A stretch of 61,484 nucleotides of DNA, the filler included, from Bdellovibrionota bacterium (GTDB lineage Bacteria > Bdellovibrionota > Bdellovibrionia > Bdellovibrionales > JAEYZS01): NCBI GenBank assembly GCA_963169515.1. It is 6 parts of 6 records of this genome, joined end to end, with 100 filler letters (N's around TTAATTAATTAA, not from the genome) between each part and the next. Parts side by side here need not be neighbours in the genome. Positions count along the whole stretch, not along the records: positions 1 to 13,561 come from CAUJEF010000119.1; 5 more parts are not named here. The stretch is one strand, 5' to 3'. A model generated the notes under the pieces. It was given only the letters and a program-made list of their open reading frames with translations, made no database searches and was not told where the DNA came from. The translations under genes and the position numbers were made by a program. Within the stretch, counting starts at the first letter, position 1. Each line of letters starts with the position of its first letter. Positions 1-42,453 of the stretch are shown in pieces.

Positions 1-1979
1 AAAACGTGACCTGATGAAATAGGTCGATCCTTTGATTTGGCTAAAGCAACAAGTTCCGAGTCGTTGAAGCCGATCAAATTTTCATCATCAAAATTTCTAA
101 AAACATAGCTTTTATTAAGCGCATATTTTTCCCAAGCCACAAAATTTTTGCGTCGATTTATATTTAACGTCAAATCTTCAGGAGATCGGCGCCCCATCAA
201 ACCAACAACGCATTTTGAATATTTGGACGCTTGTGATGAATCCAGGGCAGCATCCGATCGTTTGACTTCATATTGATCATTGATCATAAGCGTATCAAAA
301 GCTGAACCACTTTTTTTCATAACGTGTAAAATCGTATACTGCCTGGTCTTACCTGAGACCGTATGATCTGCTGGCTCAATCGGATGAAACGGTTGAAGTA
401 ATAGTTCGGCATACGAATTAACCGCCGGAAATACATCTAATGATACTTTTTTGGTAACAAATCCAACCACATCGAACTCATAATTAATCTTTAACGGCGG
501 TCGCTTATCCATCGCCTGCTCAAGCGTTTCTGTCCTTGGTTTAAAAGCATACTGAGGCGCCACCTTTCCAATATGATAATAGGTTTGTGCGTAGTAGTTT
601 TTTATTAACGCCCCATTCCCATTTTGGCCCGCAGGATCTACAAAAATAGAAGATCTCAGAACTACATTCTTAAAATTTGACCTTATTTGTGGGACAGGAT
701 CTTTTACCTGAATTGTAAATTGGCGGTGATATCCTGGCGGCGTTGTAAGCCTTACTTCTGACGTAAAATTCGAAAGCGAGCTTACAAAATATTTATTTTT
801 TTCTGCCTGAGTCAGTTCATATGAGTTACTGAATCCGAATTCATTATCAAAAATTCGTTTTATAAGCACATAACCCAAATGATTTTGATAATTATCCCAT
901 GTCACATACGCCATTGGTGTCGCAGACGACAGGGGCAAATCGACATGGACCATGTCTGTCGGGTAAAAAGCCTTTGATGCATTAGCAAACCCAGAGCGAA
1001 GGGTTTCTTCTGGTCCTTTGGGCTCCGAATAGTACAAGAAATCCATACTGGCCTCGGGTACCCCGACAACCAGGTCATTTTCAAGAACCTTTGACTTCAA
1101 AAAACGGGATTTCGAAAGCCCCGTTAGGTTAAAATAGCGTATTCCACCCGACACGTCTTGTGGCGCCTCTAAAGATTTAAATACATCTGTCGGCAAGGTC
1201 GGTTCATTAATGTCAACAACCCCTAATCCAAAATTTAAAAGCATCCATCGCAATCGCGTTGGCTCTTGGCTGCCGATTGAGAGTTCATTTAGTTGCTTAT
1301 TCGGGAAGCCAAGTTTATTCAATACCCAGTTCATCAGACTTTTTTGGTTTAAATATTGATTGGCAAAGGCAGATCCCCAAAAGGGGGTTCCAATACTGAT
1401 CAGATTTTTTACATTACGCGGAGATTGAAAATTGGCCTTTCGTTGGAATGCATACGTCAATCGTGCTTTCAAATTTGGTTCAACCTTTTCAAGCCACTTT
1501 GGTCGTTGATAGGGGTCAAACCAGCCCGCCTTTTCAAGCTGATCAATACCCTCATAATATTCACAATACTTTTTGTCTTCTGGGTTAATTGGCAACTTGG
1601 TACACGTATTGATATATCTCATCGCAATGGTACCACCCTGACTGTGGGCAACAAATGAAATTGGCGTGTCGCTCGGTAAATTCTTTTCTATAAAAAAGTT
1701 AATCATTTGAGTATTCGCAATAAGAGCGAACTCATACGGAACCATTCCATTTATGTACTCAGCTTCACCCTGATAAGGCCGTGAGGGATAAAAAATTTCT
1801 TTGAAATAAACATTTTTTGAATTGGCGTAAGCACGCGCTAAAATTTGAGGCAGGTTTCCAAAACTTGAGTCATCTCCATAAAAACCGTGAATCAAAAACA
1901 CGACGTGTGGTTCCCGATTTTTTTGTGCATGAACATTTAAGGATAAAAAAAGCCCCAAAACAAAAAGTAACACCTTCAT
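1..1979 (-). CDS. Secreted alpha/beta-hydrolase (lipase/esterase-like), 3' end runs off the window
   Basis: Not in the ORF track, presumably because no stop lies in the window. Manual translation from ATG 1979 (GAGAGGGG upstream): MKVLLFVLGLFLSLNVHA signal, VFLIHGFYG oxyanion motif, FVAHSQGG nucleophile elbow. The same frame is open at the window start; the middle was not fully read. Confidence 0.8.
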   Translation of the reverse strand, partial: MKVLLFVLGLFLSLNVHAQKNREPHVVFLIHGFYGDDSSFGNLPQILARAYANSKNVYFKEIFYPSRPYQGEAEYINGMVPYEFALIANTQMINFFIEKNLPSDTPISFVAHSQGGTIAMRYINTCTKLPINPEDKKYCEYYEGIDQLEKAGWFDPYQRPKWLEKVEPNLKARLTYAFQRKANFQSPRNVKNLISIGTPFWGSAFANQYLNQKSLMNWVLNKLGFPNKQLNELSIGSQEPTRLRWMLLNFGLGVVDINEPTLPTDVFKSLEAPQDVSGGIRYFNLTGLSKSRFLKSKVLENDLVVGVPEASMDFLYYSEPKGPEETLRSGFANASKAFYPTDMVHVDLPLSSATPMAYVTWDNYQNHLGYVLIKRIFDNEFGFSNSYELTQAEKNKYFVSSLSNFTSEVRLTTPPGYHRQFTIQVKDPVPQIRSNFKNVVLRSSIFVDPAGQNGNGALIKNYYAQTYYHIGKVAPQYAFKPRTETLEQAMDKRPPLKINYEFDVVGFVTKKVSLDVFPAVNSYAELLLQPFHPIEPADHTVSGKTRQYTILHVMKKSGSAFDTLMINDQYEVKRSDAALDSSQASKYSKCVVGLMGRRSPEDLTLNINRRKNFVAWEKYALNKSYVFRNFDDENLIGFNDSELVALAKSKDRPISSGHV

Positions 1980-2109
1980 ATTGCCCCTCTCGACTTAAGC
2001 CGTCGTATTTTATATAGTTATTGTCGAATTCACCACTTACAGAGACCGTTATTGCAATAATTACCACCTATCATTTGATTTCTAGCGACAGATCTGCGAT
2101 CTATACGCC

Positions 2110-3603
2110 ATGGACGAGGAAATACAGCGTTGTATCGAGACCATCAATAGCCTAGTGAACGACCGTAACCTCCTGTCGTCACTTACAAAAGACCAAAAAA
2201 TCGCCCTTATGACAGCCGCAGGACGCCTCTCCCGCCCTGATAAAAAAGAGATTCGGTTACAGCATAAACTAAGAAATCAACACCTTCGTCGCCTGAAAGA
2301 TCCGGATCGTAAAGCCCGGGCAAATACCGGAATTCGCAAAGCTCGGGAAATTCCAGTATTCGTGGCTCCTAACCGTGTGGAAGAGCCCTCTGCCGCAACG
2401 GATTTGAATTCGCCCCGCAACTGCTATGTTTGCAAGGCAGAATACACAAAACTTCATTATTTCTATGATTCCATGTGCGAGCGCTGTGCTGAGTTTAATT
2501 ACCAAAAAAGATTTCAGACAGCCCCGCTCACGGGGCAAGTCGCCGTTATTACAGGATCGCGCTTGAAAATTGGCTACCAGGCCACACTGATGATGCTTAG
2601 AGCGGGCGCACACGTTATCGCAACGACTCGGTTTCCGAACGATTCAGCACTTCGTTTTTCAAAAGAATTAGATTTCAACAAATGGAAAAATCGACTTGAA
2701 ATTTACGGATTGGACCTGCGCCATACACCAAGCATTGAAATTTTCACTCGGTATCTTGCTCAGAAACTGAATCGTTTGGATATTCTTATTAACAATGCTG
2801 CTCAAACGGTTCGAAGGCCACCAGGGTTCTATAGTCATTTGATGGAAAACGAAAAAAAAACCATCGAAATGCTTCCCGAGGATGCACAAGGCCTTCTTCG
2901 ATCTTTTGAAATTTGTAAGCGACAGTTAAGCTTGAAAAACACAAGTGATGCAGAATCTGCATTGACCGCATGGCATACGACAAACCCGGGTATCGGTCTG
3001 ACTTCATCTGCGGCATTATCGCAAATTCCTTATTCGTTCGACCGCTCCATCAGTGCCGAAGAAATTTTTCCTGAGGGACAACTTGATGCCGACCTTCAAC
3101 AGATCGATTTAAGAACTACGAACAGTTGGCGTTTGCGCGTTGACGAGGTCCCAACGCCTGAGATGTTCGAGGTGCAGTTGGTCAATTCGATTGCGCCTTT
3201 TGTTTTGTGTAGCAGGCTAATCCCGATCATGAAGCGGGATTACACAGGTAATAAGCATGTGGTGAATGTTACGGCGATGGAAGGCAAATTTCATCGCTTT
3301 AAAAAAGCGGATCGTCACCCGCATACCAATATGGCTAAGGCGGCATTGAATATGCTGACCCACACGTCTGCAAGCGGGTTGGCCAAGGATGGAATTTACA
3401 TGAACGCAGTCGATACGGGCTGGGTTACTGACGAAGATCCTGCCCAGCTATCGCAACACAAGCAAACAGTTCATGATTTTCAACCCCCGCTTGATATTGT
3501 TGATGGCGCAGCCCGTGTGTGCGACCCATTCTTTGACGGTATTCTGACCGGAAAACACTGGTGTGGAAAATTCTTAAAGGACTACTTCCCTATTGATTGG
3601 TAA
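2110..3603 (+). CDS. SDR-family oxidoreductase with N-terminal Cys4 (CYVC..CERC) extension
   Basis: [37 protein letters not shown] motifs. Confidence 0.85.
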
Positions 3604-3662
3604 AAAAATTTTCATTTGAGTAATCCTAAAAATGTGTTCAAATAATCAGGTTAGGAGAAAAA

Positions 3663-4115
3663 ATGAAAAAGACTTTGGAACAGTGGTTACACGAATACGC
3701 CGAATCCCATCAAAACCCAAGAAATATATTGATTCATAAATTCTGCGTTCCATTGATATTTTTTTCGATCATCGGCATGGGTTCAACATTTCACATCTGG
3801 AGATTTTCGATCTCTGAATGGATTTTCTTACTGGCGCTTCCATTTTACTTTCAATTGGGGCGCAAAGCGATGTGGCTATACGCCATATTCTTTTTTGTGT
3901 GTATGTTTGTCGTACGCTTCCTAATGCCCTGGGTCCCAATGTTTCCTGTATCCCTAGGAATCTTCGTTGTAGCCTGGATTGGGCAATTTATAGGGCACAA
4001 GCTAGAGGGCAAAAGTCCTAGCTTCCTCAAAGATCTTCAATTCCTTTTGATTGGACCTCTGTGGGTGTTTTTGGGCCAAAGCGCCAAAGCGGCCGACAAT
4101 ATCAAGCATCCGTGA
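3663..4115 (+). CDS. DUF962/Mpo1-like membrane protein
   Basis: YAESHQNPRN, HKFCVPLI, WIGQFIGHKLEGKSPSF...LLIGPLW; RBS AGGAG. Confidence 0.9.
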   Translation: MKKTLEQWLHEYAESHQNPRNILIHKFCVPLIFFSIIGMGSTFHIWRFSISEWIFLLALPFYFQLGRKAMWLYAIFFFVCMFVVRFLMPWVPMFPVSLGIFVVAWIGQFIGHKLEGKSPSFLKDLQFLLIGPLWVFLGQSAKAADNIKHP

Positions 4116-4133
4116 ATTCATGACCAACGTCTG

Positions 4134-4161
4134 TAAAAGTAGCCACCAAACACTCCGATAA
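4134..4161 (+). promoter_or_regulatory. Putative sigma28 (FliA)-type promoter of the GGDEF gene
   Basis: TAAAAG-N14-TCCGATAA versus consensus TAAA-N15-GCCGATAA. Confidence 0.45.
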
Positions 4162-4193
4162 AATAGTGTTAATAGACATCAAGGCTGGTAGAT

Positions 4194-5300
4194 TTGAAAC
4201 AATGGCTTCGCAAATTATTGGAGCAGTTCGAAAACGAACCTCAACGCCGAACCACTGATACAAAAAACATTGATATCACTGAAGATCGTGCAACGGTTCT
4301 GTATATATTGGATGTTTACAGTAAACATCTGATTGATATCGATGGTCATTCGACTCGCAAAACACGCGAAGCTTTGGATGATTTTTTAAAAGCATTGATT
4401 GACCTCGACACGCCGAACGCTGACAAGCTTTTGTTTCGCATTCGACAGTTCTTTTCCACCTATCGAATAGATGAATATACTTACATTCAAAAAACATTTG
4501 ATGATTTTAAAAATATTATATGGGATTTCGCAGATCAACTGTGCGAAGATCTTCGGTTTGAACAGGAAAAGGAAGTTACTGTAAAAAAGAATCTCGATCA
4601 ACTTCGCGAAGCCGTCGAAGCAAATTCTATTGTCGAGCTCAGAAATAAATCGCGCGAATTGATTGATTTTTATATCGAATATCAAACGGAAAAGGAAGAA
4701 CACAGAACAAAAAGCTTAAATTCGATCCAAAAAAATTTAGACACGGTAAAAAAGAAACTTACAGAAGCTAGCACAAAAATGAATATTGATCACCTTACGG
4801 GTGCAAATAACCGCATGAGCTTTGATGAACAATTGAAGAACCAGGGCCGCCTTTTTCAAATAACAAAGTCTCCAGTCACCCTACTGGTCGTCGACATCGA
4901 TTTTTTTAAAAAAATCAACGATACCTTTGGACATGACGTGGGCGATTTTGTCTTAAAAGAATGTGTTCGCCTCATGAGGTCCATATTTCACGCACCCGAA
5001 CAGATCGTTGCACGTATTGGCGGGGAAGAATTTGCGATTATTTTGCCCGGTATAAAATTAGAGGACGCTGTGAAAAAAGCCGAAGAAATGCTGGCTCTTG
5101 TTCGCAAAGAAGTAATTGTCCATCATGATTTCCAAGTGAAATACACTATGTCTGCGGGAATTTCTCAGTTGCTTGAAGGCGAAACTGTAGAGCAATGGTT
5201 AAAGCGTAGCGACCAAGCTCTTTATAAGTCAAAACAATCAGGCCGTGACCGAATAACGATCGCACCGCATGACCTAAAAGGTGAAAAAAAGATCGCATAG
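4194..5300 (+). CDS. Diguanylate cyclase (GGDEF domain) with helical N-terminus
   Basis: DHLTGANNR, DIDFFKKINDTFGHDVGD, ARIGGEEF, DQALYKSK; no RxxD I-site. Confidence 0.95.
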   Translation: MKQWLRKLLEQFENEPQRRTTDTKNIDITEDRATVLYILDVYSKHLIDIDGHSTRKTREALDDFLKALIDLDTPNADKLLFRIRQFFSTYRIDEYTYIQKTFDDFKNIIWDFADQLCEDLRFEQEKEVTVKKNLDQLREAVEANSIVELRNKSRELIDFYIEYQTEKEEHRTKSLNSIQKNLDTVKKKLTEASTKMNIDHLTGANNRMSFDEQLKNQGRLFQITKSPVTLLVVDIDFFKKINDTFGHDVGDFVLKECVRLMRSIFHAPEQIVARIGGEEFAIILPGIKLEDAVKKAEEMLALVRKEVIVHHDFQVKYTMSAGISQLLEGETVEQWLKRSDQALYKSKQSGRDRITIAPHDLKGEKKIA

Positions 5301-5304
5301 CTTA

Positions 5305-5328
5305 TCGACGGTGCCTGGCACCCGTTGA
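5305..5328. repeat. Short REP-like palindrome GGTGCCTGGCACC
   Basis: TCGACGGTGCCTGGCACCCGTTGA just after the GGDEF stop; a related motif lies at 39162. Confidence 0.45.
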
Positions 5329-5397
5329 CAGGCATGGTAAGTGTCAGTCATCCGTAAAGAATTTCACACATAAAATACGCTTATAGTGCTCATAAGC

Positions 5398-5413
5398 TGG
5401 CCTTTGGTTTGCA
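5398..5413 (+). promoter_or_regulatory. Putative sigma54 promoter
   Basis: TGGCCT-TTGGT-TTGCA has exact -24 GG / -12 GC spacing; inverted repeat TGACA-N11-TGTCA at 5326-5346 upstream. Confidence 0.55.
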
Positions 5414-5426
5414 TTTCATTAAAAGT

Positions 5427-6416
5427 ATGAAGTCGCAACTCTTCTTCATCCTCACCCTCCTACCCCAAAACACAAAAGCAGATGTGAACATGAAAGATGC
5501 GAGCTTCCGACACTCGGTGTTTGATCTCTCCATCCTGAATAGGACGTACAATAGTCGGTCTTTACATAACGGATACTTCGGTTTTGGTTGGTGCACAGAA
5601 CTTGAAAAATCAATTAAAAATCTTGGCAGTGAACTCGTGCTTTCTGATTGTAAACTGGATGGTGATATTACTTACAAAATAGTCTCACAGAGCAAAACGT
5701 CAACCATCTATCAATCAAACTTGAAATCAGACGACAAAATAGAATATCAAAACGGTATCTACACACGCCGATTTGGCTTTATACAAAAATACAATATGTG
5801 GGGCCAGCTGAACGTCTTCTCGAGTGGAGGAGGGACGGTCTATCTCTCCTTTGAGGAGTCCGGTCGCCTGGATCGAGGGGTCCTTCCAGGCGGCCGGGTT
5901 CTTCAATTTTTTTGGGATCCCAATGGTCGAATTACTTCAGTTAAGCTAGACTCAAAAGTTCTTAACTATGCCTACGAAAATGTAAACCTCTCGACAGTCA
6001 GTCAATCACATGAAATCCTATACAAGTACAATTATGATTCCCTAAATAATCTTGTATCAATCATCCACCCAGACAAAACTCGTGAACAAATAACATATGA
6101 TTTTAGAAAAGATTGGGTCACACGGGTCCAAAATCAATGTATCGAAAACTATTCTTTTAAAGCCTCCGCAGAACAAGGTTTGACAAGGCAAACAGCCACG
6201 CAAGCACAGCAATGTCCAAATCAAGGAGTCCTTATCGCACAGTATGATTATTGGTTTAAAGACAATACATTGACTCGCGCACGAATCACAAAAGATTCAA
6301 GTACGATTGACATCCAGTTCGATCCGACCGGAAGCCCGAGCAAAATAAGCAAAAAGAATTTCTCTGTAACTTCACAATTTCTTGGGGGTACGAAATGGAA
6401 CTCATTCTTGCGGTGA
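5427..6416 (+). CDS. Secreted DUF6531/YD-(RHS)-repeat protein
   Basis: Signal peptide from ATG 5427, RTYNSRS..GYFGFGW motif, YD-like repeats (YNYDSLNNLVSIIHPD). Confidence 0.75.
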   Translation: MKSQLFFILTLLPQNTKADVNMKDASFRHSVFDLSILNRTYNSRSLHNGYFGFGWCTELEKSIKNLGSELVLSDCKLDGDITYKIVSQSKTSTIYQSNLKSDDKIEYQNGIYTRRFGFIQKYNMWGQLNVFSSGGGTVYLSFEESGRLDRGVLPGGRVLQFFWDPNGRITSVKLDSKVLNYAYENVNLSTVSQSHEILYKYNYDSLNNLVSIIHPDKTREQITYDFRKDWVTRVQNQCIENYSFKASAEQGLTRQTATQAQQCPNQGVLIAQYDYWFKDNTLTRARITKDSSTIDIQFDPTGSPSKISKKNFSVTSQFLGGTKWNSFLR

Positions 6417-7432
6417 TCTTGTTTAACCTACCAGTTCTCGCTCAATCCCAGTGGGCACTTGACCAAATCGACGCGCTTCGCGCCCAAGCCATCAAAAATC
6501 CGCAAGAAGAAGTTCTGGTCGCAGTCATCGACACTGGGGTTGATCTCTCTCACCCTTTCCTTCGGGACAATCTTTGGAAAAACCCGAAGGAAATTCCCTT
6601 CAACAACAAAGACGATGATAATAATGGATTTATCGACGACGTTTATGGGTGGAATTTTGTACAGAATACAAACAATGTTTCAGATCTCCACGGTCACGGT
6701 AGCCATATCAGTGGAATAATTAAAATGGTCTCTGGAGCAAAAGTGAAAATTATGACTTTGAAATATTATGATTCGGGAAAGCTGTCAGAAAAAAATTTAA
6801 ATAACACAATAAGAGCGATCCAATACGCAATAGCGATGGGCGCGCAGATCATAAATTATTCTGGCGGCGGATTTGAAAAAAGTGTCGAGGAAGAGGCTGC
6901 CATTCGTCTGGCCAGCAGAAAAAATATTTTATATGTCGCGGCCGCTGGGAACGAGCGAACGAATTTAGATTTTAATAGGTTTTACCCAGCAAGCTATGAT
7001 TTGCCAAATGTTCTCAGTGTAGCCGCAATTGAAGAATCTGGGGGGCTACTCAGTGCTAGCAATTACGGACCACATACTGTTAGGATCGCAGCGCCAGGTC
7101 GAAAGATAACCTCAACCCTTCCATTCGGCCGTTTTGGGGAAATGGATGGGACCTCGCAAGCAACGGCGTTTGTTACTGGCGCTGCCGCATTGTTAAAAAG
7201 CACTCATCCTAATCTTAAAAATCCCCAAGATATAATTCGACGATTGATACAAACTGGAATTTCAAATCCACGGCTCAAGGGAAAAACGTCAAATCAGCAA
7301 GAATTAAACATTTTTCGCGCTATTGCCATGGAAGAAAAGGGAACAACAGCCTTCGGCCAACGCCCCCAGAACATTCCAAACATTCCAGAAATATTCTGGT
7401 ACGCCGTTCCCTTTCAGGAGACGATGCATTAA
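6395..7432 (+). CDS. Secreted S8 subtilisin-like serine protease
   Basis: VAVIDTGVD, HGHGSHISG, AAAGNE, GTSQATAFVTG triad. The last ~11 codons and stop come from repeat copy 1. Confidence 0.95.
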   Translation: MELILAVILFNLPVLAQSQWALDQIDALRAQAIKNPQEEVLVAVIDTGVDLSHPFLRDNLWKNPKEIPFNNKDDDNNGFIDDVYGWNFVQNTNNVSDLHGHGSHISGIIKMVSGAKVKIMTLKYYDSGKLSEKNLNNTIRAIQYAIAMGAQIINYSGGGFEKSVEEEAAIRLASRKNILYVAAAGNERTNLDFNRFYPASYDLPNVLSVAAIEESGGLLSASNYGPHTVRIAAPGRKITSTLPFGRFGEMDGTSQATAFVTGAAALLKSTHPNLKNPQDIIRRLIQTGISNPRLKGKTSNQQELNIFRAIAMEEKGTTAFGQRPQNIPNIPEIFWYAVPFQETMH

Positions 7433-7486
7433 CAATAAAGAAAAGGACACAATAATGCGTTGTCTCCTGAAAGGGAACGGCGTACC
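7398..7486. repeat. Long palindromic element (REPIN/MITE-like), copy 1
   Basis: 34-bp arms GGTACGCCGTTCCCTTTCAGGAGACGATGCATTA / TAATGCGTTGTCTCCTGAAAGGGAACGGCGTACC with two G-T pairs. Confidence 0.95.
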
Positions 7487-7494
7487 TTTTCCGG

Positions 7495-7959
7495 ATGGAT
7501 TTGCAGACGTGGGAGTTATTAAGTTATATGGTCACGGTGATTGGATTGCCGTTTGCGCTCATCGCCTTCTATATGCAGCAAAGAAAAGAACGCCAGAATG
7601 AAGAGGCTGAAATTTATCAAAGCTTATCAGACGAATACGCAGACTTTCAAAGACTACTCCTTCGAAATGCAGACCTTCAACTGACCTTGCCTACAAATAT
7701 CGACAACTTGACCCCAGACCAACGCGAACGCAAGAAAATCATATTTGATATTTTGATTTCGCTATTTGAACGAGCCTTTATTCTTGTTTACGAAGAAAAT
7801 ATGAGCAAGCAAACCGCCCGCCTATGGGCTAGCTGGGAAGATTATATTCGCTCGTGGTGTTCCAGAAAAGATTTTCGAGACGCCTTGCCAGAGTTGCTTC
7901 CTGGGGAAGACCCCGATTTTGAAGATTATATTCGTAAACTTTTGCAGAAAATCCCTTAG
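7495..7959 (+). CDS. Small protein with one N-terminal TM helix and a helical domain (DUF4760-like)
   Basis: 154 aa; hydrophobic VTVIGLPFALIAF, then LFERAFILVY and WASWEDYIRSW. Confidence 0.75.
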   Translation: MDLQTWELLSYMVTVIGLPFALIAFYMQQRKERQNEEAEIYQSLSDEYADFQRLLLRNADLQLTLPTNIDNLTPDQRERKKIIFDILISLFERAFILVYEENMSKQTARLWASWEDYIRSWCSRKDFRDALPELLPGEDPDFEDYIRKLLQKIP

Positions 7960-8046
7960 GTACGCCGTTCCCTTTCAAGAGACGATGCATTAACTTTAAA
8001 AAAATGACACGTTGATGCACTGTCTCCTGAAAGGGAACGGCGTACC
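7959..8046. repeat. Long palindromic element, copy 2
   Basis: Same termini; fills the gap between convergent stops TAG (7957-7959) and TAA (8048-8050, minus strand). Confidence 0.95.
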
Positions 8047-8047
8047 T

Positions 8048-9982
8048 TTAAGCCACTTTTTTTAGGTTTGAATTTGAGTTAATAACAGATTTCAATTCTC
8101 GATGAACTTGATCCGCGTTTGCGAATCCAAAGAAGAACCGATTAAAAAATCCCTTGTTGGTCTCTAGGTAAAGACCTTTTCTAAAAAATGCCAAATCAAT
8201 AAATCGATAGCGAAGGCTTGGATATTTTCGAAGGCGCCAAACGCGGTAAACCTTCATCATAGTGATTTTTTCCAACGGTATAGAGTACGAATAATACGTC
8301 AGACTCTTTATGACTAATTTATCCCCTACGATCATAATTTTTCGTGGCCAAAAAGCTAAGTAAGATATCAATGTCCCCGCAACACCGATCCATACAATAA
8401 ACATAAACAAATAGCTGTTTGTAAACAAATAGGCCTTCAGATTCATTAGATCCCATATCCACCGCACAGCATAGCTCGCCACATTTAAAAATAACAACGG
8501 TAAGCCAACAAAAGTGAAAATCATAAACACAGTCATCGGTGCGTATTTTATTTTTCGAATATATCGTACTTTAGTGTGATCAAACTTTTTTATGAAGACA
8601 GATTTAAAAATAAAAAACATTAAAACAGCAAATAAAACATTTGTAGCATAGTCATCACCGCGGAATAGTATCGGTGGAGCATAAAATTCTTCGTATTTTT
8701 GTACAGACTTAAACATTTTTGCAAGGCGCTCTCGATATTCGGTGGCAGAGGTTTGTTTTAAAACCTGGTATGGTGATCGAGTTTCTTTGTAGTCCTTGCC
8801 AAATTGATCAATACCACGTGCAAGTCCCAATAAACTCATTGAGTCCGTATCAACAATTTCAAACTTTTTCAGATACAGCCGCTTTGCCTCTTCAATTTGT
8901 TCATCTGCAATCCCCCCCCGACGGGCTTCGCTTTCGATGTGGTTACGAACAAGCTCTAAATTCGAATGATAACGATCACGCGTTGTCTGCAGGGACACTA
9001 ATCCATAACCATAACCTTGGGTTAAATTAATTTCATCCATTGCCGTATAGGTTTCACCTGTTAAATTTCGAATTTCCTTCATTAATCGATGTGAAAGATA
9101 ATTCAAATAGGATCGCATAATCATTTCGTCTGTCGCATTGATATTCCAAACCTTCGTACCCAAACTTATATATGTATCGCGCTTAGCAATTCGAGCGACC
9201 ACGTATGGCCGTTTACGTGGCACGGGCGCACGCGAAATCCGCCCGTCCTTTCCACTTTTTTCCATTTTCCCGAATGTGTTTTTTATTTTTATTTTGAATT
9301 TAGCTACATCAAAATCGCCGGCAACGAATATCCTCATATTTTGCGGATGATAATAGTCGTCGTAAAAAGCCTGAACACTTTTCTCTGTTAAATCTTTAGT
9401 GTTATCCCTAATTAAATCTTCATCATAGTCCCGATCGGGAATTCCAAATTCAGTTTTCCAAAACCCAAGGCTCGGCATTTTGACTGGAGACAATACTTTT
9501 TTAAAAAACAAATCGAATTGGTTTTCCTTTTCGCCTAGCTCCAGCATGACCTCTTTGCGCCCCTTGTTGACATCATCAAATTTGATCTTCCGATCGATAA
9601 ATAATTTGGCATACCAATTCAAAAGCCAGTCAGCTTTGTCACTTCGGATGGTTGTAAAATAAGATGTGGACTGTTCCATGGTATAGCCATTACCAGTTCC
9701 CCCCTCTTCTTTGACGACTTCCATAAATGACATGTTTGGTGGCAGACTATCGTGCCGAAACAATGTGTGTTCCAACAGGTGGGCAACACCCATATTTTTA
9801 TTATTTTCTTGTTCCCACCCAACGCCGTATTCGACCTGTATAGTGACCGTGTTTGCCCGAGTACCCGGAGCAAAGTAAACTGCTAGGCCGTTATCTAAGA
9901 CCGTTTTAGAAACGATATCATAGGGATCAGCAGCAGCATTCGAGTTTAAAAAAAGTCCAATCAGGACCAAAAGATAGGTCAT
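8048..9982 (-). CDS. M16 (insulinase) zinc peptidase with signal peptide, C-terminal TM helices and PH-like domain
   Basis: GVAHLLEH, NGYT, FYDDYYHPQNM..VAGD. Start taken as ATG 9982 (MTYLLVLIGLFLNSNAAA); the ORF-track extension runs into repeat copy 3. Confidence 0.85.
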   Translation of the reverse strand: MTYLLVLIGLFLNSNAAADPYDIVSKTVLDNGLAVYFAPGTRANTVTIQVEYGVGWEQENNKNMGVAHLLEHTLFRHDSLPPNMSFMEVVKEEGGTGNGYTMEQSTSYFTTIRSDKADWLLNWYAKLFIDRKIKFDDVNKGRKEVMLELGEKENQFDLFFKKVLSPVKMPSLGFWKTEFGIPDRDYDEDLIRDNTKDLTEKSVQAFYDDYYHPQNMRIFVAGDFDVAKFKIKIKNTFGKMEKSGKDGRISRAPVPRKRPYVVARIAKRDTYISLGTKVWNINATDEMIMRSYLNYLSHRLMKEIRNLTGETYTAMDEINLTQGYGYGLVSLQTTRDRYHSNLELVRNHIESEARRGGIADEQIEEAKRLYLKKFEIVDTDSMSLLGLARGIDQFGKDYKETRSPYQVLKQTSATEYRERLAKMFKSVQKYEEFYAPPILFRGDDYATNVLFAVLMFFIFKSVFIKKFDHTKVRYIRKIKYAPMTVFMIFTFVGLPLLFLNVASYAVRWIWDLMNLKAYLFTNSYLFMFIVWIGVAGTLISYLAFWPRKIMIVGDKLVIKSLTYYSYSIPLEKITMMKVYRVWRLRKYPSLRYRFIDLAFFRKGLYLETNKGFFNRFFFGFANADQVHRELKSVINSNSNLKKVA

Positions 9983-10014
9983 TGTTCCTGTTCGGAATAT
10001 CCAGAGGAAAGTAA

Positions 10015-10107
10015 AGGTACGCCGTTCCCTTTCATGAAACAATGCAAAAAAACGTCCATTTATTGGACGTTTTTTTGCATTGTTTCATGAAAGGGAACGG
10101 CGTACCT
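10015..10107. repeat. Long palindromic element, copy 3 (perfect 44-bp stem)
   Basis: AGGTACGCCGTTCCCTTTCATGAAACAATGCAAAAAAACGTCCA-TTTAT-exact reverse complement. Confidence 0.97.
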
Positions 10108-12799
10108 AGTTGGATTCGCGTGAGAAGAAGCGGAGCCAATTTTCACGTGAACGGAAGAATACTGATGGATACCCGTCATCGTTAATTACAAGCGCAGGAA
10201 ATTGCCCCCCTAAGCTTGTGTATGCCCCGCCTGACGTATCAGTATCAATATACTCATGCGTCCATGTGCCACTTGAGCGTGTCGACAACTGCAACGCTTG
10301 GTAAGTCATACTGTAGAATGCTGCATACACAGTGCCAGAAGAATTCACTCCAATAGACGGAATCATACCATCTGTCGCTGTGGCAGGACCAGGAGCTGCA
10401 ATCTCTTCAGCCGAAAATGCTGAGGCACCGGTTGTAACCGCAGTCGCAATGTCAGCCGATGTGTAAACATAACGATAACGTGTTTGCGTAGAATCCAAAT
10501 GCACAAGATTCAACTTGTCTCCAGAACCTATCGCCATATCGATACCGGTACCACGAGTATTTCCACTCGCATCCAGATTTAAACACGTCCACGTATAGGT
10601 TGCGCTTGTGATTGCCTCTGTTGCATAAGCAAGCCATAAAGCACCATCACGTTGATAAGCAATAACCGGACGACCTGTTGAATCAAATCGCACTCGCGAA
10701 TACTTACCAGCGTCTGACGTGGTTGAACAGCCTGTGCCCGTTGCACCCGTCGTTCCGTCAACTACAAAGTATCTCCATCCTGAAGATGGATAGTATTTAT
10801 AAAAACGAAGTGCAGTATTTGCACCAGTCGAATCATAAACTGACACCCCAACCCCACCTGTGCCGTAAGTTGCAACACTTGTGTAACCTACGGATGTGAT
10901 TGTTGCTAAATCATTTAATGTTTCAAACTGCCAGCTTGCACCATCATTACTTGTGCGAGCAACAAACACGTTGAGCTCGGCTGCAAGCATATTGATACCT
11001 GCAATAACTGGTTGGCTTGCGCTATTAAACGCAATCGACGGATGCATACCAGGTGCAGCCGTAGCTCCCGTTGGGTCTGCATAATTGATTACGTTTCTTT
11101 CACCAAAGAACGGATCCAAATCTGATCCGCCTTTCATTGTATAAAAAGTTTTTGTTTCCGAATTCGCAGCATCTTGATAGGCATATACTGCACCCATTTT
11201 TCCACTAGAGGTGCTTGCTGCCGAAAGAACTGGTATCGCAGTAGACGGGAAAACTGTCACCAAGTTATCAACAATCACATTTGGGACAGCAAGGTTCATC
11301 GCTGCGCCTAAATCATCAGGGTCAAGGAACGCAAGCTTTATGTCGTTACCTGTCGCTGTTGCGGCAGCGCCAGGTAATTTTGCATAAGACATATAGAAAA
11401 TATCATTTGTAGTGTCATAGACTGAATCCACACCTTCCGAAGAAACAGTCGTTGTTTCAACGTTCGTCAATAGGTTTGTCCAATTCGTACCATCATAGCC
11501 CGTCATCTGAACTGTTGTGGTTGAATCAAGCAATGCCATCAACCAACGATCAGCCGTTTTATATGCCATTTTGAAACCATTTAGACCACCACTTGAAGCG
11601 TCGATCGTCGCAAGCGCTCCCCACGAACCCGCAGTTGCGGGCTGTGCCGTTGCGCAATCATTGACAGCTTTTGCAGCAAGCAGTGTATTAGCAGGTGTTG
11701 CGGTTGCATACCATGCAAGAACGGGTTTATCGTCTGCTTCATTGATAATCACATCTGAACGGATACCTTGGTTACCTGCTGCTGTTATACCTGCGCTGTA
11801 ACATGCTCCCGCGCAACCTGAAATTAAGTTCGTATCTGTTATTGCACCACCCAAACCGCTCGCACCAACCGAACGCTGAAAATAAGCAGGTTGAGAATTG
11901 GCGGCATTTGTTCCAAGAGCATGCGTACCGACCAAGTACTCGGTTCCACCAACTGAACACATCGCAAGACCAATTTGGTTTTGGTTGATACTGAGTGCCG
12001 TATAAGTTCCCGTACCCGTTACAATTGCAGGACCATTTGTTTCAGTCCAAGAGCCTGCCGAATTTCTAAAAAGATGTTTTAAATACGAGTTATTTAACGG
12101 AGTTTGCGCGTACCACGCATACATAATGTGCGGCCGATCTGCGGAATCAAGTACCAAATTGATAGCTTTGATTGGATCCACAGTCGCCGCAAATGCGACG
12201 TTTGTAGCGCCCGCCGCCGCACTGTAACTTGCAGCCGTAGACAGCGACCAAACGCCCGCTGTTGAACGTTCTGCTACTTTAACATATTTATAAACAGCAG
12301 CGGCAGCCGTTGTGCTCGCACCATAGATATAAGCAATGATCGGCGTGCCATTAGACTTAAATTTAAGTGAAAGTATATTCGCACGCGGGCCATTGGCGTT
12401 TGTTGGGGCCCCAACACACGTTGAGCCTACTGCACCACATGCTGCTGTGCCGTAGTTTAAATCTACGACTTCTATATTCCACACACCGTTTGCATCCATG
12501 TAAGCATATTTCAATGCTCCTAAGGCTGTCGTTCCCGTCGCATGATTTTTGTCATAGTAAACAACGGCTGGCAGATGCGTTACCGGGTTGAGCCCCATAT
12601 TGTTGTAACCACCCGTCAAGTTTTGGAAAGACATCGATGGACCAAAAGAGATAGTTTCTTTCACATCAGTCGTGGATGAACCAGCCGCTCCGCCTGATGA
12701 GGAAAAATCCGTTCCTAATTCACCGCCGCCAGAGCAACCAAAAAGGGCTGTCGCCAGAAGCAGAACTGCCAATGCAGTAGTTAATTTATTACTTAGCAC
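10106..12799 (-). CDS. Large Ala/Gly/Thr-rich lipoprotein, probable beta-propeller repeats
   Basis: AGGAGG + GTG start, lipobox LFGC, recurrent D...G.Y/F..I/L.....G.P.I.Y blade-like motifs. Confidence 0.8.
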   Translation of the reverse strand: MLSNKLTTALAVLLLATALFGCSGGGELGTDFSSSGGAAGSSTTDVKETISFGPSMSFQNLTGGYNNMGLNPVTHLPAVVYYDKNHATGTTALGALKYAYMDANGVWNIEVVDLNYGTAACGAVGSTCVGAPTNANGPRANILSLKFKSNGTPIIAYIYGASTTAAAAVYKYVKVAERSTAGVWSLSTAASYSAAAGATNVAFAATVDPIKAINLVLDSADRPHIMYAWYAQTPLNNSYLKHLFRNSAGSWTETNGPAIVTGTGTYTALSINQNQIGLAMCSVGGTEYLVGTHALGTNAANSQPAYFQRSVGASGLGGAITDTNLISGCAGACYSAGITAAGNQGIRSDVIINEADDKPVLAWYATATPANTLLAAKAVNDCATAQPATAGSWGALATIDASSGGLNGFKMAYKTADRWLMALLDSTTTVQMTGYDGTNWTNLLTNVETTTVSSEGVDSVYDTTNDIFYMSYAKLPGAAATATGNDIKLAFLDPDDLGAAMNLAVPNVIVDNLVTVFPSTAIPVLSAASTSSGKMGAVYAYQDAANSETKTFYTMKGGSDLDPFFGERNVINYADPTGATAAPGMHPSIAFNSASQPVIAGINMLAAELNVFVARTSNDGASWQFETLNDLATITSVGYTSVATYGTGGVGVSVYDSTGANTALRFYKYYPSSGWRYFVVDGTTGATGTGCSTTSDAGKYSRVRFDSTGRPVIAYQRDGALWLAYATEAITSATYTWTCLNLDASGNTRGTGIDMAIGSGDKLNLVHLDSTQTRYRYVYTSADIATAVTTGASAFSAEEIAAPGPATATDGMIPSIGVNSSGTVYAAFYSMTYQALQLSTRSSGTWTHEYIDTDTSGGAYTSLGGQFPALVINDDGYPSVFFRSRENWLRFFSRESN

Positions 12800-12808
12800 G
12801 GTAACCTC

Positions 12809-13561
12809 CTAAAATCGGAATCGTAATTCAAACGGTATAGCGTAACTCATTCCAGTTTCCGCTATGTCTGTACCACGCGTTCCGGCTCCTTTATATTTCA
12901 TGTAATCAAAATTAAAATTAAAACCGACGACTAAATCCAATAATTTTGTGTATGGAAACACCAGCCGCAAATTAACCTCTGGCATAATACCCATATTGTA
13001 TCGACCAGACGTCACATCCGGTTCATCCATATAAAACGGAAGATTTAAAAATAAATCTGCTTCCCAATTAAATATTGATGACATCTTGCCGGACGAACCC
13101 ACCGCAAGCGTTGGACCGATAAATTTCTGATCAACAAGAACAGGTTGGGACAGCGTCTCACTTAATTTCTTTGTATAATAATAAGCGCCAATGCCCACGT
13201 AAAAATTTGAATGAGTAATACGAAATTTTGTCAGGAAACTATACATATCTTTGTTGTATTTAAACAAATCCGGCGTAAAACTTGGAAGATCCCGATACTC
13301 GGCAGAGGTATGCTTGTATCGAAGATGGTAAGAATAAGCCGAGTCCTTATTCCTCCAATTTAAAGCCGTTGAATAAAAAATATTTGTCGATGGATCAAGG
13401 CTTGTCGTCGATCCACCCGACCCGCTGATGGAATTTGAATCAAATGACGGGCCAGCAGTTAGATACCAATTAAACCCCTCGTAGGCCAAGCTGTCATTTG
13501 CAAAATCCGCGTCCAACACCTGATCTTCAAGCGGATTGCCTTCACCAGGAATAATTTCCTG
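12809..13561 (-). CDS. Outer-membrane beta-barrel protein (5' truncated by linker)
   Basis: Frame open to the gap; amphipathic strands; C-terminal ELRFRF. Confidence 0.65.
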   Translation of the reverse strand, partial: QEIIPGEGNPLEDQVLDADFANDSLAYEGFNWYLTAGPSFDSNSISGSGGSTTSLDPSTNIFYSTALNWRNKDSAYSYHLRYKHTSAEYRDLPSFTPDLFKYNKDMYSFLTKFRITHSNFYVGIGAYYYTKKLSETLSQPVLVDQKFIGPTLAVGSSGKMSSIFNWEADLFLNLPFYMDEPDVTSGRYNMGIMPEVNLRLVFPYTKLLDLVVGFNFNFDYMKYKGAGTRGTDIAETGMSYAIPFELRFRF

Positions 13562-25835: not shown

Positions 25836-27836
25836 ATGACAAAGGAAATGGATTTAACCCACGAGAACGTGCGCCAAGAAAACATGCGCGCCCTTAACGG
25901 TAACCGCTTTACAACTGAAATACCAACTCCTGCAACCCCACCGGTGGAAGAATGGAACTCCGAAGAGAGCGCAAAACTTTACGGTATCAATACTTGGGGC
26001 GGGGGTTACTTTCGAATAAATAAAAAAGGTAATGTTTGCGTTACCCCGCAGGGCAAGCTGGGTCCGCAGGTCGATATGCTACAGTTAATGGAAGATCTTT
26101 GTGAACGCGGTATTCGTCCTCCGATCTTAATCCGATTCCCAGACATTATTCGATCTCGTATTCAATTACTCGCTAGCTGCTTTTCCAGTGCGATCGCAGA
26201 ATACGGCTACAAGGGCAAATATCAGGGCGTTTACCCTGTCAAAGTAAATCAACAAAATCACGTTGTTAGCGAAATCATTAAACACGGCAAAATGTCTTCG
26301 TTGGGGCTAGAGTGCGGCAGTAAGCCTGAGCTTTTAATCGGCTTGGGCATGATTGAAGACATGAGCAGCTTAATCGTCTGTAACGGTTTTAAAGACAGCG
26401 AATATATCGAAACAGCGTTGTTATCTCAAAAATTGGGACGAAACACGATCATCGTGGTCGACCGTTTCTGGGAACTAACAGAGATCGTAAAACGCGCTAA
26501 GATTTTAGAAATGAAACCCCGTATCGGCTTCCGCGCAAAACTTGAATCTAAAGGCAGCGGAAAGTGGATCGAAAGCTCAGGCGCACGATCTAAATTTGGC
26601 TTAACACCGCCAGAAATTGTTTCCGGTATTAACCTTTTAAAATCTGAAAATATGTTGGATTCTCTAATTCTTCTTCACTACCACGTGGGATCACAAATTA
26701 ATTCAATTCAAGCTATTAAATCTTCTATCAAGGAAGGCGCTCGTTATTACGTTGAAATGCGCGAACTCGGCGCACCGATTCAATATGTTGACGTTGGCGG
26801 TGGATTGGGCGTTGATTACGATGGAACGGGTAAGGGTTTTAACTCAGTCAATTATGATGAAAAAGAGTACGCAAACGATGTTGTTTCCATCATACAGAGC
26901 GTGTGTGATGAAAAAGATACTCCTCATCCAACACTTGTAACGGAATCCGGGCGCGCTCTTGTTGCCCATCACTCTGTTTTAATCTTCAATGTCCTCGGCG
27001 TGAATGAATTGATTCAAAAGAAAAATGAAATCACCGTTACGGAAGACGATCACGAAGTAATTCACAATTTGTTTGAAATATACGAAAAAATTTCTAACGA
27101 AAACCTACACGAATTTTATCATGATACCCTACAGTTAAAAAATGATACGCATCAGTTGTTTTCGTTTGGCTATATGAACTTGGATCAACGTGCGAAGGCG
27201 GAACGCATCGTTTGGGGCATTTTAACAAAAATGTATCAAATCAGTCAGGGCATGGAAGACGCCGTCGAAATTATGGAAACCCTGAAACAAGAGCTTTCAG
27301 ATACGTACTTTTGCAACTTCTCTGTATTTCAGTCCGTACCGGACTCTTGGGCGGTCGAGCAGCTATTCCCTGTTATGCCGATCCATCGTTTGACAGAGCG
27401 ACCTAATCGCCGTGCAGTTCTTGTCGATCTAACCTGTGATTCGGACGGGAAATTGGATCAGTTTATTGAATATGAAGAAAAAAAGCACGCGCTCGCCCTT
27501 CACGAACATCAGGAAACAAAGCCCTATTTCCTAGGAGCGTTTTTATTGGGTGCATACCAAGAAATTCTGGGCGACCTACATAACCTTTTTGGTGACACTG
27601 ACGCAGTTACAGTCGGTATTAACGAAGTCGGCTACACCATCGAACACGTTGAAGAAGGTGATACAGTTACCGAAGTATTAAGTTACGTGCAGTACAATCG
27701 AGGCGATCTTGTTTCACGTATGCGGAAAGCCACCGAAGAAGGTATCCGCAACAAGAAAATCACGACCCAAGAAGCTCGTCAATTAATGAAGAACTACGAA
27801 GATGGCTTGTCTGGGTACACGTATCTCGAGGAATAG
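25836..27836 (+). CDS. speA: Biosynthetic arginine decarboxylase
   Basis: YPVKVNQ, GLECGSKPEL, HYHVGSQI, DVGGGLGVDYDG, ESGRA, DLTCDSDG. Confidence 0.97.
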   Translation: MTKEMDLTHENVRQENMRALNGNRFTTEIPTPATPPVEEWNSEESAKLYGINTWGGGYFRINKKGNVCVTPQGKLGPQVDMLQLMEDLCERGIRPPILIRFPDIIRSRIQLLASCFSSAIAEYGYKGKYQGVYPVKVNQQNHVVSEIIKHGKMSSLGLECGSKPELLIGLGMIEDMSSLIVCNGFKDSEYIETALLSQKLGRNTIIVVDRFWELTEIVKRAKILEMKPRIGFRAKLESKGSGKWIESSGARSKFGLTPPEIVSGINLLKSENMLDSLILLHYHVGSQINSIQAIKSSIKEGARYYVEMRELGAPIQYVDVGGGLGVDYDGTGKGFNSVNYDEKEYANDVVSIIQSVCDEKDTPHPTLVTESGRALVAHHSVLIFNVLGVNELIQKKNEITVTEDDHEVIHNLFEIYEKISNENLHEFYHDTLQLKNDTHQLFSFGYMNLDQRAKAERIVWGILTKMYQISQGMEDAVEIMETLKQELSDTYFCNFSVFQSVPDSWAVEQLFPVMPIHRLTERPNRRAVLVDLTCDSDGKLDQFIEYEEKKHALALHEHQETKPYFLGAFLLGAYQEILGDLHNLFGDTDAVTVGINEVGYTIEHVEEGDTVTEVLSYVQYNRGDLVSRMRKATEEGIRNKKITTQEARQLMKNYEDGLSGYTYLEE

Positions 27837-27903
27837 ATCCTTTCGACAACATTCAATTTACGATTTCAACTCGGTTATCGTTAGTCAGCGAAACAAAAAA
27901 TTC

Positions 27904-27932
27904 TTGACAATACGTACGTATTTATGTACGCT
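27904..27932 (+). promoter_or_regulatory. Sigma70 promoter with palindromic operator of the Phd-RelE TA operon
   Basis: TTGACA-17-TACGCT; the spacer holds palindrome TACGTACGTA and a second GTACG. Confidence 0.7.
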
Positions 27933-27938
27933 TAATAC

Positions 27939-28193
27939 ATGAAAATGAAAAAAACCATTCCAGCAACTAATCTACGCGAAGAACTTTATGATACCCTAAA
28001 AAAAGTATCTAATGGCGATTCGCTTGTTATCACTCATAAACAAGGTGCCCCTGTGGTTTTATTATCGCAGGATAAGTTAAATAAAATCGAAGAGGAAAAT
28101 GAGGTTTTACGTCAAATCGCGATTGGCGCTACTTCTTCAGAAAAATTTTCTCACGCTGAAATAGTTAAACGACTGAGAAAGATTGTTAAATAG
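27939..28193 (+). CDS. Phd/YefM-family antitoxin
   Basis: IPATNLREELY..LVITHKQG.PVVLLS. Confidence 0.85.
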   Translation: MKMKKTIPATNLREELYDTLKKVSNGDSLVITHKQGAPVVLLSQDKLNKIEEENEVLRQIAIGATSSEKFSHAEIVKRLRKIVK

Positions 28194-28486
28194 TGAAGCG
28201 CTCGATTTTTTGGAAGCGCCCAGCTCTTGAGCGTCTTGAAGAGATCGCTCATTTTATCAAAAAAGATAATCCTGGGCGTGCCTCTTCATTTATAGAAGGG
28301 CTTATTTTAGCCACGGAGCAACTGGAAGACTTTCCTTTTTCTGGCGGCATTGTCCCCGAGAACGCAGCTTTTCGACAAATTGTTTATTCGGGTTATAGGA
28401 TAATTTATTTAATTCCAGATGATTTCGAAGTACATATTATCGCTGTAATTTCGCCGTATATGTCAGGAAAGGAAATCAAAAAATGA
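28193..28486 (+). CDS. RelE/ParE-family toxin
   Basis: IFW...A.ERLEEIAHFIKKDNP..A, LEDFPFSG.IVPE, YRIIY. Confidence 0.88.
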   Translation: MKRSIFWKRPALERLEEIAHFIKKDNPGRASSFIEGLILATEQLEDFPFSGGIVPENAAFRQIVYSGYRIIYLIPDDFEVHIIAVISPYMSGKEIKK

Positions 28487-28644
28487 TGGTTAATGTTCCC
28501 AAGTTAAAAATATTTCTTGGGTGCATTTTATTTTTTCTTTTGGGCTGCGATCCGGCGGTTACCCTGCTAAATGCCACAGCAGTGGGGAATGGCATTTTTA
28601 CACTTGTTACATACACATTTTACATTTCGAAGCTTAACCATTAG
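28483..28644 (+). CDS. 53-aa ORF with lipoprotein signal (possible truncated gene)
   Basis: MMVNVPKLKIFLGCILFFLLGCDP...; ATGA overlap with the toxin stop. Confidence 0.35.
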   Translation: MMVNVPKLKIFLGCILFFLLGCDPAVTLLNATAVGNGIFTLVTYTFYISKLNH

Positions 28645-28695
28645 CCGCGTCAGAACCGTATGCTATGTTCCCCCTTCATTTATCGAGGTGGTAGT

Positions 28696-30186: not shown

Positions 30187-30187
30187 G

Positions 30188-31968: not shown

Positions 31969-31977
31969 TATGTGCAC

Positions 31978-39163: not shown

Positions 39164-39182
39164 GGTTCCAGGTTCCTTTTTT
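39162..39182. repeat. Short REP-like motif
   Basis: AAGGTTCCAGGTTCCTTTTTT at the ahpC stop; resembles 5310-5322. Confidence 0.35.
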
Positions 39183-42365: not shown

Positions 42366-42453
42366 GGTACGCCGTTCCCTTTCAGGAGACAACGCATTAT
42401 TGTCTGCGTTTCAAAGGAATAATGCGTTGTCTCCTGAAAGGGAACGGCGTACC
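42366..42453. repeat. Long palindromic element, copy 4
   Basis: Perfect 41-bp arms including A5/T5 flanks (42361-42458), 16-nt loop. Confidence 0.97.

Follow-up and report, generated by a model that had tools for sequence, protein, structure and literature searches.

How does a gene come to lie neatly between two copies of a long palindrome, in the manner of an integron cassette, on DNA that carries no recombinase? The question is raised by a 61,484-nucleotide (nt) stretch from a Bdellovibrionota bacterium (assembly GCA_963169515.1), called the window below, in which six contigs of a 2.38-Mb genome in 173 contigs are joined by N linkers. Positions 1-13561 are contig C119, to which all three hairpins at issue and the genes bracketed by them are confined (Table 1). 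A first-pass annotation had described three copies of the palindrome as separating consecutive genes, and had proposed either hairpin-mediated gene capture or shuffling, or insertion at stop codons like that of REPINs. All copies and all distances were confirmed: the ATG of a 154-aa gene lies 8 nt past copy 1 and its TAG supplies the first G of copy 2, the stop of an M16 peptidase gene is 1 nt from copy 2, and the TAG of a lipoprotein gene overlaps copy 3. What does not stand is the clean separation at copy 1, which lies inside the 3' end of the S8 protease gene and overlaps the last 35 nt of its open reading frame (ORF). The sites are indeed not attC, RYYYAAC ... GTTRRRY ends being absent from the element sequence, and no match to a Y1 or tyrosine recombinase occurs on the window contigs. 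Judging from the sequence, the palindromes are probably non-autonomous passengers of a Y1/HUH enzyme encoded on another contig, C152, which become joined flush to TAA or TAG stops while likely overwriting spacers and dispensable gene tails, rather than products of cassette capture.

The arms of the palindrome provide the first evidence. Its repeat family, A, was sought in the genome with a 19-nt arm allowing 2 mismatches and with the exact 13-nt core; the former yields 38 arms, arranged as singles and as 14 dimers (68-91 nt long, arms inverted and <130 nt apart), and the latter 36. The ends of the element are GGTACG ... CGTACC, and the DNA of each window copy folds into a long hairpin (z from -10.7 to -19.2), with 0 of 200 shuffles equally stable; an Rfam scan of the element gave no family at gathering score, only sub-threshold hairpin matches. 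Two family-A arms, at C152:26326(+) and 27149(-), enclose a gene for a 236-aa Y1/HUH protein, which is framed by a 24-bp perfect inverted repeat. A RAYT-like enzyme flanked by the motif, which the first-pass annotation had suggested looking for, is thus present elsewhere in the genome. The protein scores above the PF01797 cut-off and carries the motifs NHFH and YLYRNP; its nearest structure is TnpA-REP 4ER8 (E 2e-6), and Pfam matches Y1_Tnp only, with a C-terminal tail of 80-90 residues beyond it. Y1 paralogs on C139, C105 and C96 each have an inverted repeat of their own, with 17, 14 and 39 dispersed arms, respectively. The family-A arm is the terminal inverted repeat (TIR) of the C152 enzyme, and there is one repeat family per Y1 paralog. 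For a fifth family, E, with 19 arms by exact core, no cognate enzyme was found in the assembly. A hybrid dimer at C14:8709-8810, which occupies the whole ftsB-polA gap, has a family-C left arm and a family-A right arm and suggests cross-family joining.

The pairing of enzyme and repeat extends across the order. Y1 homologs occur in 137 of 201 genomes, and inverted repeats flank 25 of the 30 best homolog loci, our own locus included; NH[FY]H is found in 30/30 and YxxxNP in 29/30 of these proteins, and the common repeat core is approximately AGGT(A/T/G)CC(A/T)G(C/G)TTCYTTTT. The family-A core itself was found in 58 of 301 genomes and in all six within the family. An earlier search of 40 relatives with the 19-mer (2 mismatches) had returned two single matches; since the shorter core is widespread, that search was too strict. 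The exact 19-mer matched once in metagenome contigs, in a coding region without a partner arm, which we attribute to chance.

Long TIRs would also suit a miniature inverted-repeat transposable element (MITE) of a DDE insertion sequence, or a tyrosine-recombinase site, with Y1 as a mere passenger; the genome holds five tyrosine recombinases, and the 8-bp end left at one empty site (see below) resembles a target duplication. On a survey of Y1 and tyrosine-recombinase genes, such an origin is nonetheless very improbable: every Y1 paralog is matched with a repeat of its own, a pairing seen again in other genomes of the order, and no direct duplications were found flanking family-A dimers. None of the five recombinases is near the window and no arm pair frames one; their catalytic parts, the only parts scanned, match Xer-type models best.

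Assembly error must also be considered, in which repeats would have joined unrelated genes. Contigs of one run (X2) break at all three copies, and several genome contigs end in arms. The copies are shorter than 100 nt with distinct interiors, however, and contigs of other runs span copy 1 up to its right-hand edge (7167-7489 in X4, 7158-7489 in X13) and bridge copy 2 (7569-8865 in X4), so that an artefact is extremely improbable; copy 3 is crossed only by overlapping short pieces.

Table 1. Repeat copies, genes and predicted promoters in the window, in order of position
Feature	Position	Strand	Description
Family D arm core	5310..5322		9 nt past GGDEF gene stop
S8 protease gene	6395..7432	+	last 11 residues and stop supplied by copy 1
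Copy 1	7398..7486		two family-A terminal inverted repeats joined head to head, 89 nt
Predicted outward sigma70-type promoter, copy 1 right arm	7460..7488	+	TTGTCT, 17 nt, TACCTT
154-aa protein gene	7495..7959	+	no Pfam/NCBIfam family; 1239 homologs
Copy 2	7959..8046		88-nt dimer between two convergent stop codons
M16 peptidase gene, 644 aa	8048..9982	-	C-terminal part in 22/250 order genomes, 0/6 family
Predicted outward promoter, copy 3 left arm	10014..10042	-	TTGTTT, 17 nt, TACCTT, faces M16
Copy 3	10016..10106		91-nt dimer, perfect 43-nt arms, different subtype
897-aa lipoprotein-like protein gene	10106..12799	-	C-terminal half in 7/200 order genomes, 0/6 family
Family E arm core	39164..39176	+	flush with AhpC gene stop
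Copy 4	42366..42453		dimer on contig C123, 3 nt past a stop

How the arms are placed relative to genes is the second line of evidence. Taking all families together, a stop codon lies within -1..+3 nt of the outer end in 42 of the 123 arms with full flanks (of 125); the others comprise 19 with a reading frame running into the element, 13 with an ATG at <=10 nt and 49 with neither. Family A is stop-flush in 14 of 35 arms (40%), compared with 2.5% of context-matched non-coding sites. TGA accounts for 1 of the 42 flush stops, as against 475 of ~1990 stops genome-wide. Related arms in other genomes behave alike (35/104 stop-flush versus a null of 1.9%; the 104 are distinct arms taken from several hundred listed, some of them orthologous). 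REPIN-like insertion at stop codons, the other half of the initial proposal, is thereby borne out genome-wide, far above chance.

Comparison of gene neighbourhoods shows what the element has displaced. Neighbours of family-A arms include polA, valS, tsaD, mutY, speB, selD, fadJ, flagellin and fahA/maiA (26 proteins scanned). The mutY and speB genes are adjacent in 4/4 relatives without a dimer, with a gap of ~88-121 nt; here the gap is 104 nt, of which 88 nt are element. The element therefore replaces the native spacer, gaps with and without a dimer being alike in size. The ftsB-polA order is likewise kept without a dimer in 4/4 relatives, one of them with an extra gene, and one relative shows an arm-like end before polA. 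The first-pass annotation had held that gene order conserved in relatives lacking the elements would speak against capture, and such order is what both of these loci present. At C48:1471-1558 the starts of the divergent genes fahA and maiA are separated by a dimer and nothing else, flanked by an identical 10 nt on both sides, ATG included; the dimer occupies the place of a ~260-aa gene present in 5/5 relatives, for which no match was found in this assembly. Inversion of fahA between copies was considered and rejected, as the relatives are also divergent.

The DNA outside the arms bears a mark of its own. In 43 genes whose stop abuts an arm, A+C at the fourfold degenerate sites of the final 20 codons amounts to 0.68 (C 0.40, G 0.10), compared with 0.51 in 1644 other genes (per-gene P 4e-6), and the skew fades by codon 40-60. 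Starts show the mirror image, with G+T at 0.68 in the first 20 codons of 13 start-abutting genes (104 sites). The 154-aa gene has no skew (0.46), which fits a recent junction. Moreover, the outer flanks of 29 dimers are symmetric past the repeat, over a mean of 2.9 versus 1.5 nt, and this symmetry reaches >=4 nt in 12/29 dimers where 1.9 are expected. Skew and symmetry point to strand-specific repair beside the outer end as their cause.

These observations bear on a plainer account, namely insertion at any TA-purine site with purifying selection alone, in which the tight junctions would reflect small operon gaps and neither overwriting nor a promoter role would be involved. The sequence upstream of arms is mostly AA, AG or TA, as that account would have it, and in the sister genus one dimer lies between operon genes that are 0-8 nt apart in genomes lacking it, and an empty site there differs by clean loss. 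We consider plain insertion quite improbable even so: context-matched sites touch stops far less often than arms do, divergent gene pairs have lost the entire native spacer, skew and symmetry require local rewriting, and the TTG variants described below track start-facing ends.

A sister genus, with 44 genomes and a different repeat that has the same core, can serve as a model. Its speA-oppC interval varies in content and frequently harbours a Y1 element; both anchors were found in 42/44 genomes (the labels oppC, ychF, pgpA and hldD are ones that we presume from the protein sequences). In 11 of the 42, arms lie within 7 nt of both native stops, and two of those 11 retain only Y1 remnants between the arms (307 and 411 nt); the remnants mark a path from full element to dimer. 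Y1 occurs in either orientation between the same two stops (L146, L149 and L151, in genomes G062, G098 and G155), which reflects inversion or replacement between arms. Elsewhere in the genus, one dimer is missing in a close genome, where a single 8-bp end is left; one gene shows graded loss of its tail, in a series that begins with a long tail ending at the gene's own stop, continues with a frame that enters the element and closes with a new TAG at the arm; and one arm pair encloses a native terminator. The corresponding interval in the window (27836-31978, on C123) has several unassigned genes and no clear arm.

Taken together, these data suggest how the dimers of the window may have arisen. 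Y1 would nick single-stranded arms, as enzymes of the IS200/REP type do, and dimers would form through internal deletion of the Y1 element, plus copying. Repeated nicking and repair could then rewrite ~60 nt of outer flank, eroding DNA until selection halts the process on reaching a stop codon or the last few bases ahead of a start codon. If a native promoter was lost, arm variants reading as -35/-10 (TTG..-17-TACCTT) may have been kept and now drive the gene, the 154-aa gene being a predicted case of such arm-driven expression. Short-range hopping would bracket single genes and therefore produce the cassette look.

How far that look exceeds chance can be counted. Nine single genes in the genome are bracketed versus 3.2 expected (P 0.004), with the same family on both sides in 7/9; family A is on both sides of three genes where 0.21 are expected (P 0.0006), so pairing around single genes is real, as had been surmised. 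Five of the nine (fahA, a glcD-like gene, an aldehyde dehydrogenase gene, the 154-aa and the M16 gene) were sought in the family; orthologs of fahA and of the glcD-like gene are present in 5/5 relatives each and of the aldehyde dehydrogenase in 3/5. One of the remaining genes is an aminopeptidase P by Pfam, and three have no family. The orientation of the glcD-like gene was set aside as evidence, since it differs from 4/5 relatives and matches the fifth.

Such bracketing is also what an HUH enzyme might produce by integron-like capture, in which a circle of one gene and one element enters a resident element and duplicates it, making the 154-aa gene (and M16) cassettes, with copy 1 providing the promoter of the former. 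One promoterless accessory gene is enclosed by copies 1 and 2, which are near-duplicates in the same orientation (89% across 92 nt; 0.80 in the interior) and each other's best match among the 14 dimers, and removal of that gene would restore the usual layout of an element between two 3' ends. On C105, the aldehyde dehydrogenase gene (C105:9829-12155) has a family-C arm on either side, the two in direct orientation, and is next to the Y1 element; in 3/3 relatives it precedes the GTP cyclohydrolase gene, which here lies apart and starts 8 nt past a family-A dimer on C54. In the sister genus, two of the 11 arm-bearing genomes have an extra direct arm, and the DNA from there to the Y1 arm holds a block of 3 genes that differs between the two.

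Capture is unlikely on several grounds all the same. Extra genes are also found at speA-oppC in 21/30 genomes without these arms (three of the 21 have an arm from a different family), so gene gain at this site does not require the arms; one 'cargo' gene occupies the same place in four of these genomes, and two genes bracketed in one sister genome are unbracketed or half-bracketed in place elsewhere. The idea of cassette accretion at the sister-genus Y1 locus was weakened by this 42-genome control. Bracketed fahA and glcD-like genes are conserved, as noted above. No long hairpin or repeat shared by both flanks was found in 25 full loci of 154-aa homologs, by a motif-free test in which the control locus was positive (an earlier weight matrix had missed the genome's own arms), and inspection by eye showed no arm past the stop in 10 homologs of M16 and 8 of the lipoprotein. 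In GC content, third-position GC content (GC3) and codon score the window genes are unremarkable. Excision joints were absent from the contigs of 8 runs; because contigs drop rare forms, this leaves rare circles possible. Two joints skipping 524 and 526 nt were rejected as repeat artefacts, since they connect the right arm of copy 2 with the end of copy 1 and their sides measure only 26-27 letters. The notion that low-share runs hold M16 alone was likewise rejected, as in four of them the stretch is thinly covered throughout (the tables for X19 and X20 are identical). As a general mode, cassette capture as first proposed is thus not upheld, given conserved genes among those bracketed, gene order kept without dimers and no 154-aa homolog bracketed; the resemblance to cassettes probably arose as a side effect of local spread. 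A low probability also attaches to a broader form of the idea, integron-free shuffling driven by an HUH enzyme, in which end repeats would replace promoters and stops, a bare ORF would move with one repeat into another, and the upstream arm would give the moved gene a leaderless promoter, with the 154-aa gene between its duplicates as the example.

Several points weigh against passenger dimers that overwrite their flanks. Comparisons could be made only across genera or within the sister genus, and include no empty site for the window copies. The accessory nature of all three genes to the right of copy 1, and the duplicate state of copies 1 and 2, would follow from capture as well. The C152 protein scores 58.4 bits against the NCBIfam model for REP-associated tyrosine transposases, below the cut-off of 80. 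Finally, the null pools are probably too low because they were built with our own gene caller (2368 genes genome-wide, 86% coding); with the nulls doubled, P is still 5e-10 for stops and 0.003 for starts.

The promoter step of the proposed mechanism deserves separate treatment. The left arm of copy 1 overlaps and terminates the protease ORF, and its right arm faces the start of the 154-aa gene, with 6 nt between TACCTT and the ATG, a leaderless spacing. Start-facing arms read TTGTCT-17-TACCTT-5/6-ATG. Genome-wide, TAnnnT peaks 6 nt before ATG (3.4% versus ~2%) and TTG peaks 17 nt above TAnnnT (10/59), indicating that leaderless promoters exist in this genome. An ATG at 7-8 nt follows 7/35 family-A arms. 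An ATG at 7-9 nt follows 5/10 arms with TTG in the -35 position versus 1/24 others (P 0.005), one arm having been dropped at a contig end. Copy 4 was uncounted though it fits, its right arm having an ATG 8 nt beyond, in an ORF cut by the contig end. Family D, which has no TAnnnT, shows such an ATG in 0/38 arms. In other genomes TTG is present in 4/4 arms with an ATG at 7-10 nt versus 1/100 others, from 2 independent sites.

Against a promoter role stand the following points: three of the four outside TTG cases are one orthologous gene, reading TACCTC; the 7-10 nt class was defined after the outside arms were seen; two arms that belong to a single dimer do not count as independent; the -10 matches weakly (3 of 6) and a generic promoter scan does not flag the site; and polA (4 nt) and tsaD (1 nt) misfit the spacing. 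Native leaderless spacing is also infrequent for the 154-aa family (6/25), speB (1/4) and maiA (0/3); otherwise it is seen for polA in 4/4, mutY in 2/4 and fahA in 1/5. We give about even odds that the arm acts as an outward leaderless promoter.

The genes of the window differ in how they relate to the family. The S8 protease is ~30 native residues shorter than 4/4 same-family orthologs examined, and the missing tail was found neither beside the RNase H gene nor elsewhere in the genome. In those four relatives RNase H is a separate gene that follows the protease; here it is on C39 (35261-36283), fused to what we take, from its sequence, to be a GNAT-like domain. The 154-aa gene is present in 26/200 genomes of the order and 0/6 of the family. 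Its protein family is strongly conserved yet patchy, with the top 120 homologs at 64-82%, and its named homologs are Bdellovibrionales; a single N-terminal membrane helix is seen by eye. The M16 start is most likely the ATG at 9982, 33 nt from copy 3 and not within it, and a search for M16 in the genome contig collection gave no match.

Further Y1-like sequences were seen in the genome. A second family of 8 copies (~180 aa, NHIH and YIKVN motifs, no NP) occurs on C69, C145, C128, C7, C137, C84 and C1, with a more distant member on C110; several copies adjoin a ~100-130-nt hairpin repeat, probed with two 15-16-nt probes (5 matches each), and are not framed by inverted repeats. A TCCG-N5-CGGA-like palindrome recurs before the Y1 genes on C152, C139, C105 and C96 and inside families D and E; as a general Y1 feature it was rejected, the strict pattern being present in only 4/30 homolog loci.

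Which known system, then, does the locus represent? The closest is the TIRtron with its TIRYT enzyme, in which a Y1 protein of ~236 aa with NH[YF]H and YxxxNP is framed by TIRs, according to the published sections compared (Di Nocera et al. 2013, PMC3733652). Also shared are multiple paralogs in one genome, every one with a separate repeat, and moderate numbers of single and dimer copies. The consensus here differs from GGGGWSAS, which most of the TIRs described there carry, with unrelated TIRs allowed (PMC3733652). In the portions of Quentin et al. 2018 (PMC6006769) drawn on here, TIRYT is identified with TnpA-Y1 subclass 2.1, which ranks second in size among the groups of these enzymes; it also corresponds to group 1 of Bertels, which averages 12 flanking 16-mers in the extract available (Bertels 2017, 10.1101/119735). 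The C152 protein agrees with the part of Table 1 of PMC6006769 concerning subclass 2.1 in length and motifs; a Pfam scan found no match in its tail to the C-terminal helix-turn-helix of that subclass. Junctions flush with stops, replaced spacers, rewritten flanks and promoter variants are not mentioned in those sections of the TIRtron descriptions, no enzyme assay was found in the TIRYT literature as far as its text was accessible, and the word 'Bdellovibrio' is absent from the main texts of PMC3733652 and PMC6006769.

REPINs and their RAYT enzymes resemble the present system in having two inverted arms <130 nt apart, a hairpin near gene 3' ends and an enzyme of the same fold family; that GTAG ends of repetitive extragenic palindromes (REPs) supply TAG stops has already been stated, in a passage of PMC3733652. 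In contrast, family A begins GGTACG, without a GTAG or CGTC tag (GTAG occurs only in the related family C), the enzyme is framed by single arms and not by REPIN arrays, copies number in the tens and not the hundreds, and the C152 protein falls below the NCBIfam REP-transposase cut-off. Integrons share genes packed tightly between hairpin repeats and possibly a promoter in the upstream site; they differ in that here there are no attC ends, no IntI was seen adjoining among the recombinases scanned by their catalytic parts, repeats are scattered at core genes and gene orientation is mixed. MITEs with outward promoters, such as Correia and MITE-Aba12, are likewise small, non-autonomous elements with TIRs and outward promoter-like sequence. 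Those MITEs, Correia elements among them, are tied to DDE insertion sequences, whereas the partner here is an HUH enzyme and only ends that face a start carry the promoter variant. Outward promoters were predicted in MITE-Aba12, and Correia promoters appear in the reference list of the same paper (PMC6382973, consulted in excerpt). Searches of the literature, with most subscription journals outside their reach, found nothing on RAYT in Bdellovibrio and nothing on REPs with an outward leaderless promoter. The feature is real and is a variant of the known but little-studied TIRtron/TIRYT type; new here is the variant in its start-facing arms, a predicted outward leaderless promoter.

Four enzyme-repeat pairs and a fifth repeat family within 2.4 Mb, together with a defined 13-nt core, make substrate and specificity directly testable. 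The benefit of such systems to their hosts has been described as unclear in the available portion of Bertels 2022 (10.1101/2021.07.10.451892). If our reading is true, arms that overwrite DNA up to gene boundaries and supplant the promoters of the housekeeping genes mutY, speB, fahA and maiA would make the repeats hard to lose, which would be a candidate answer to why hosts keep enzyme-repeat systems; the same arms would also be a local mutational source that reshapes the tails of genes.

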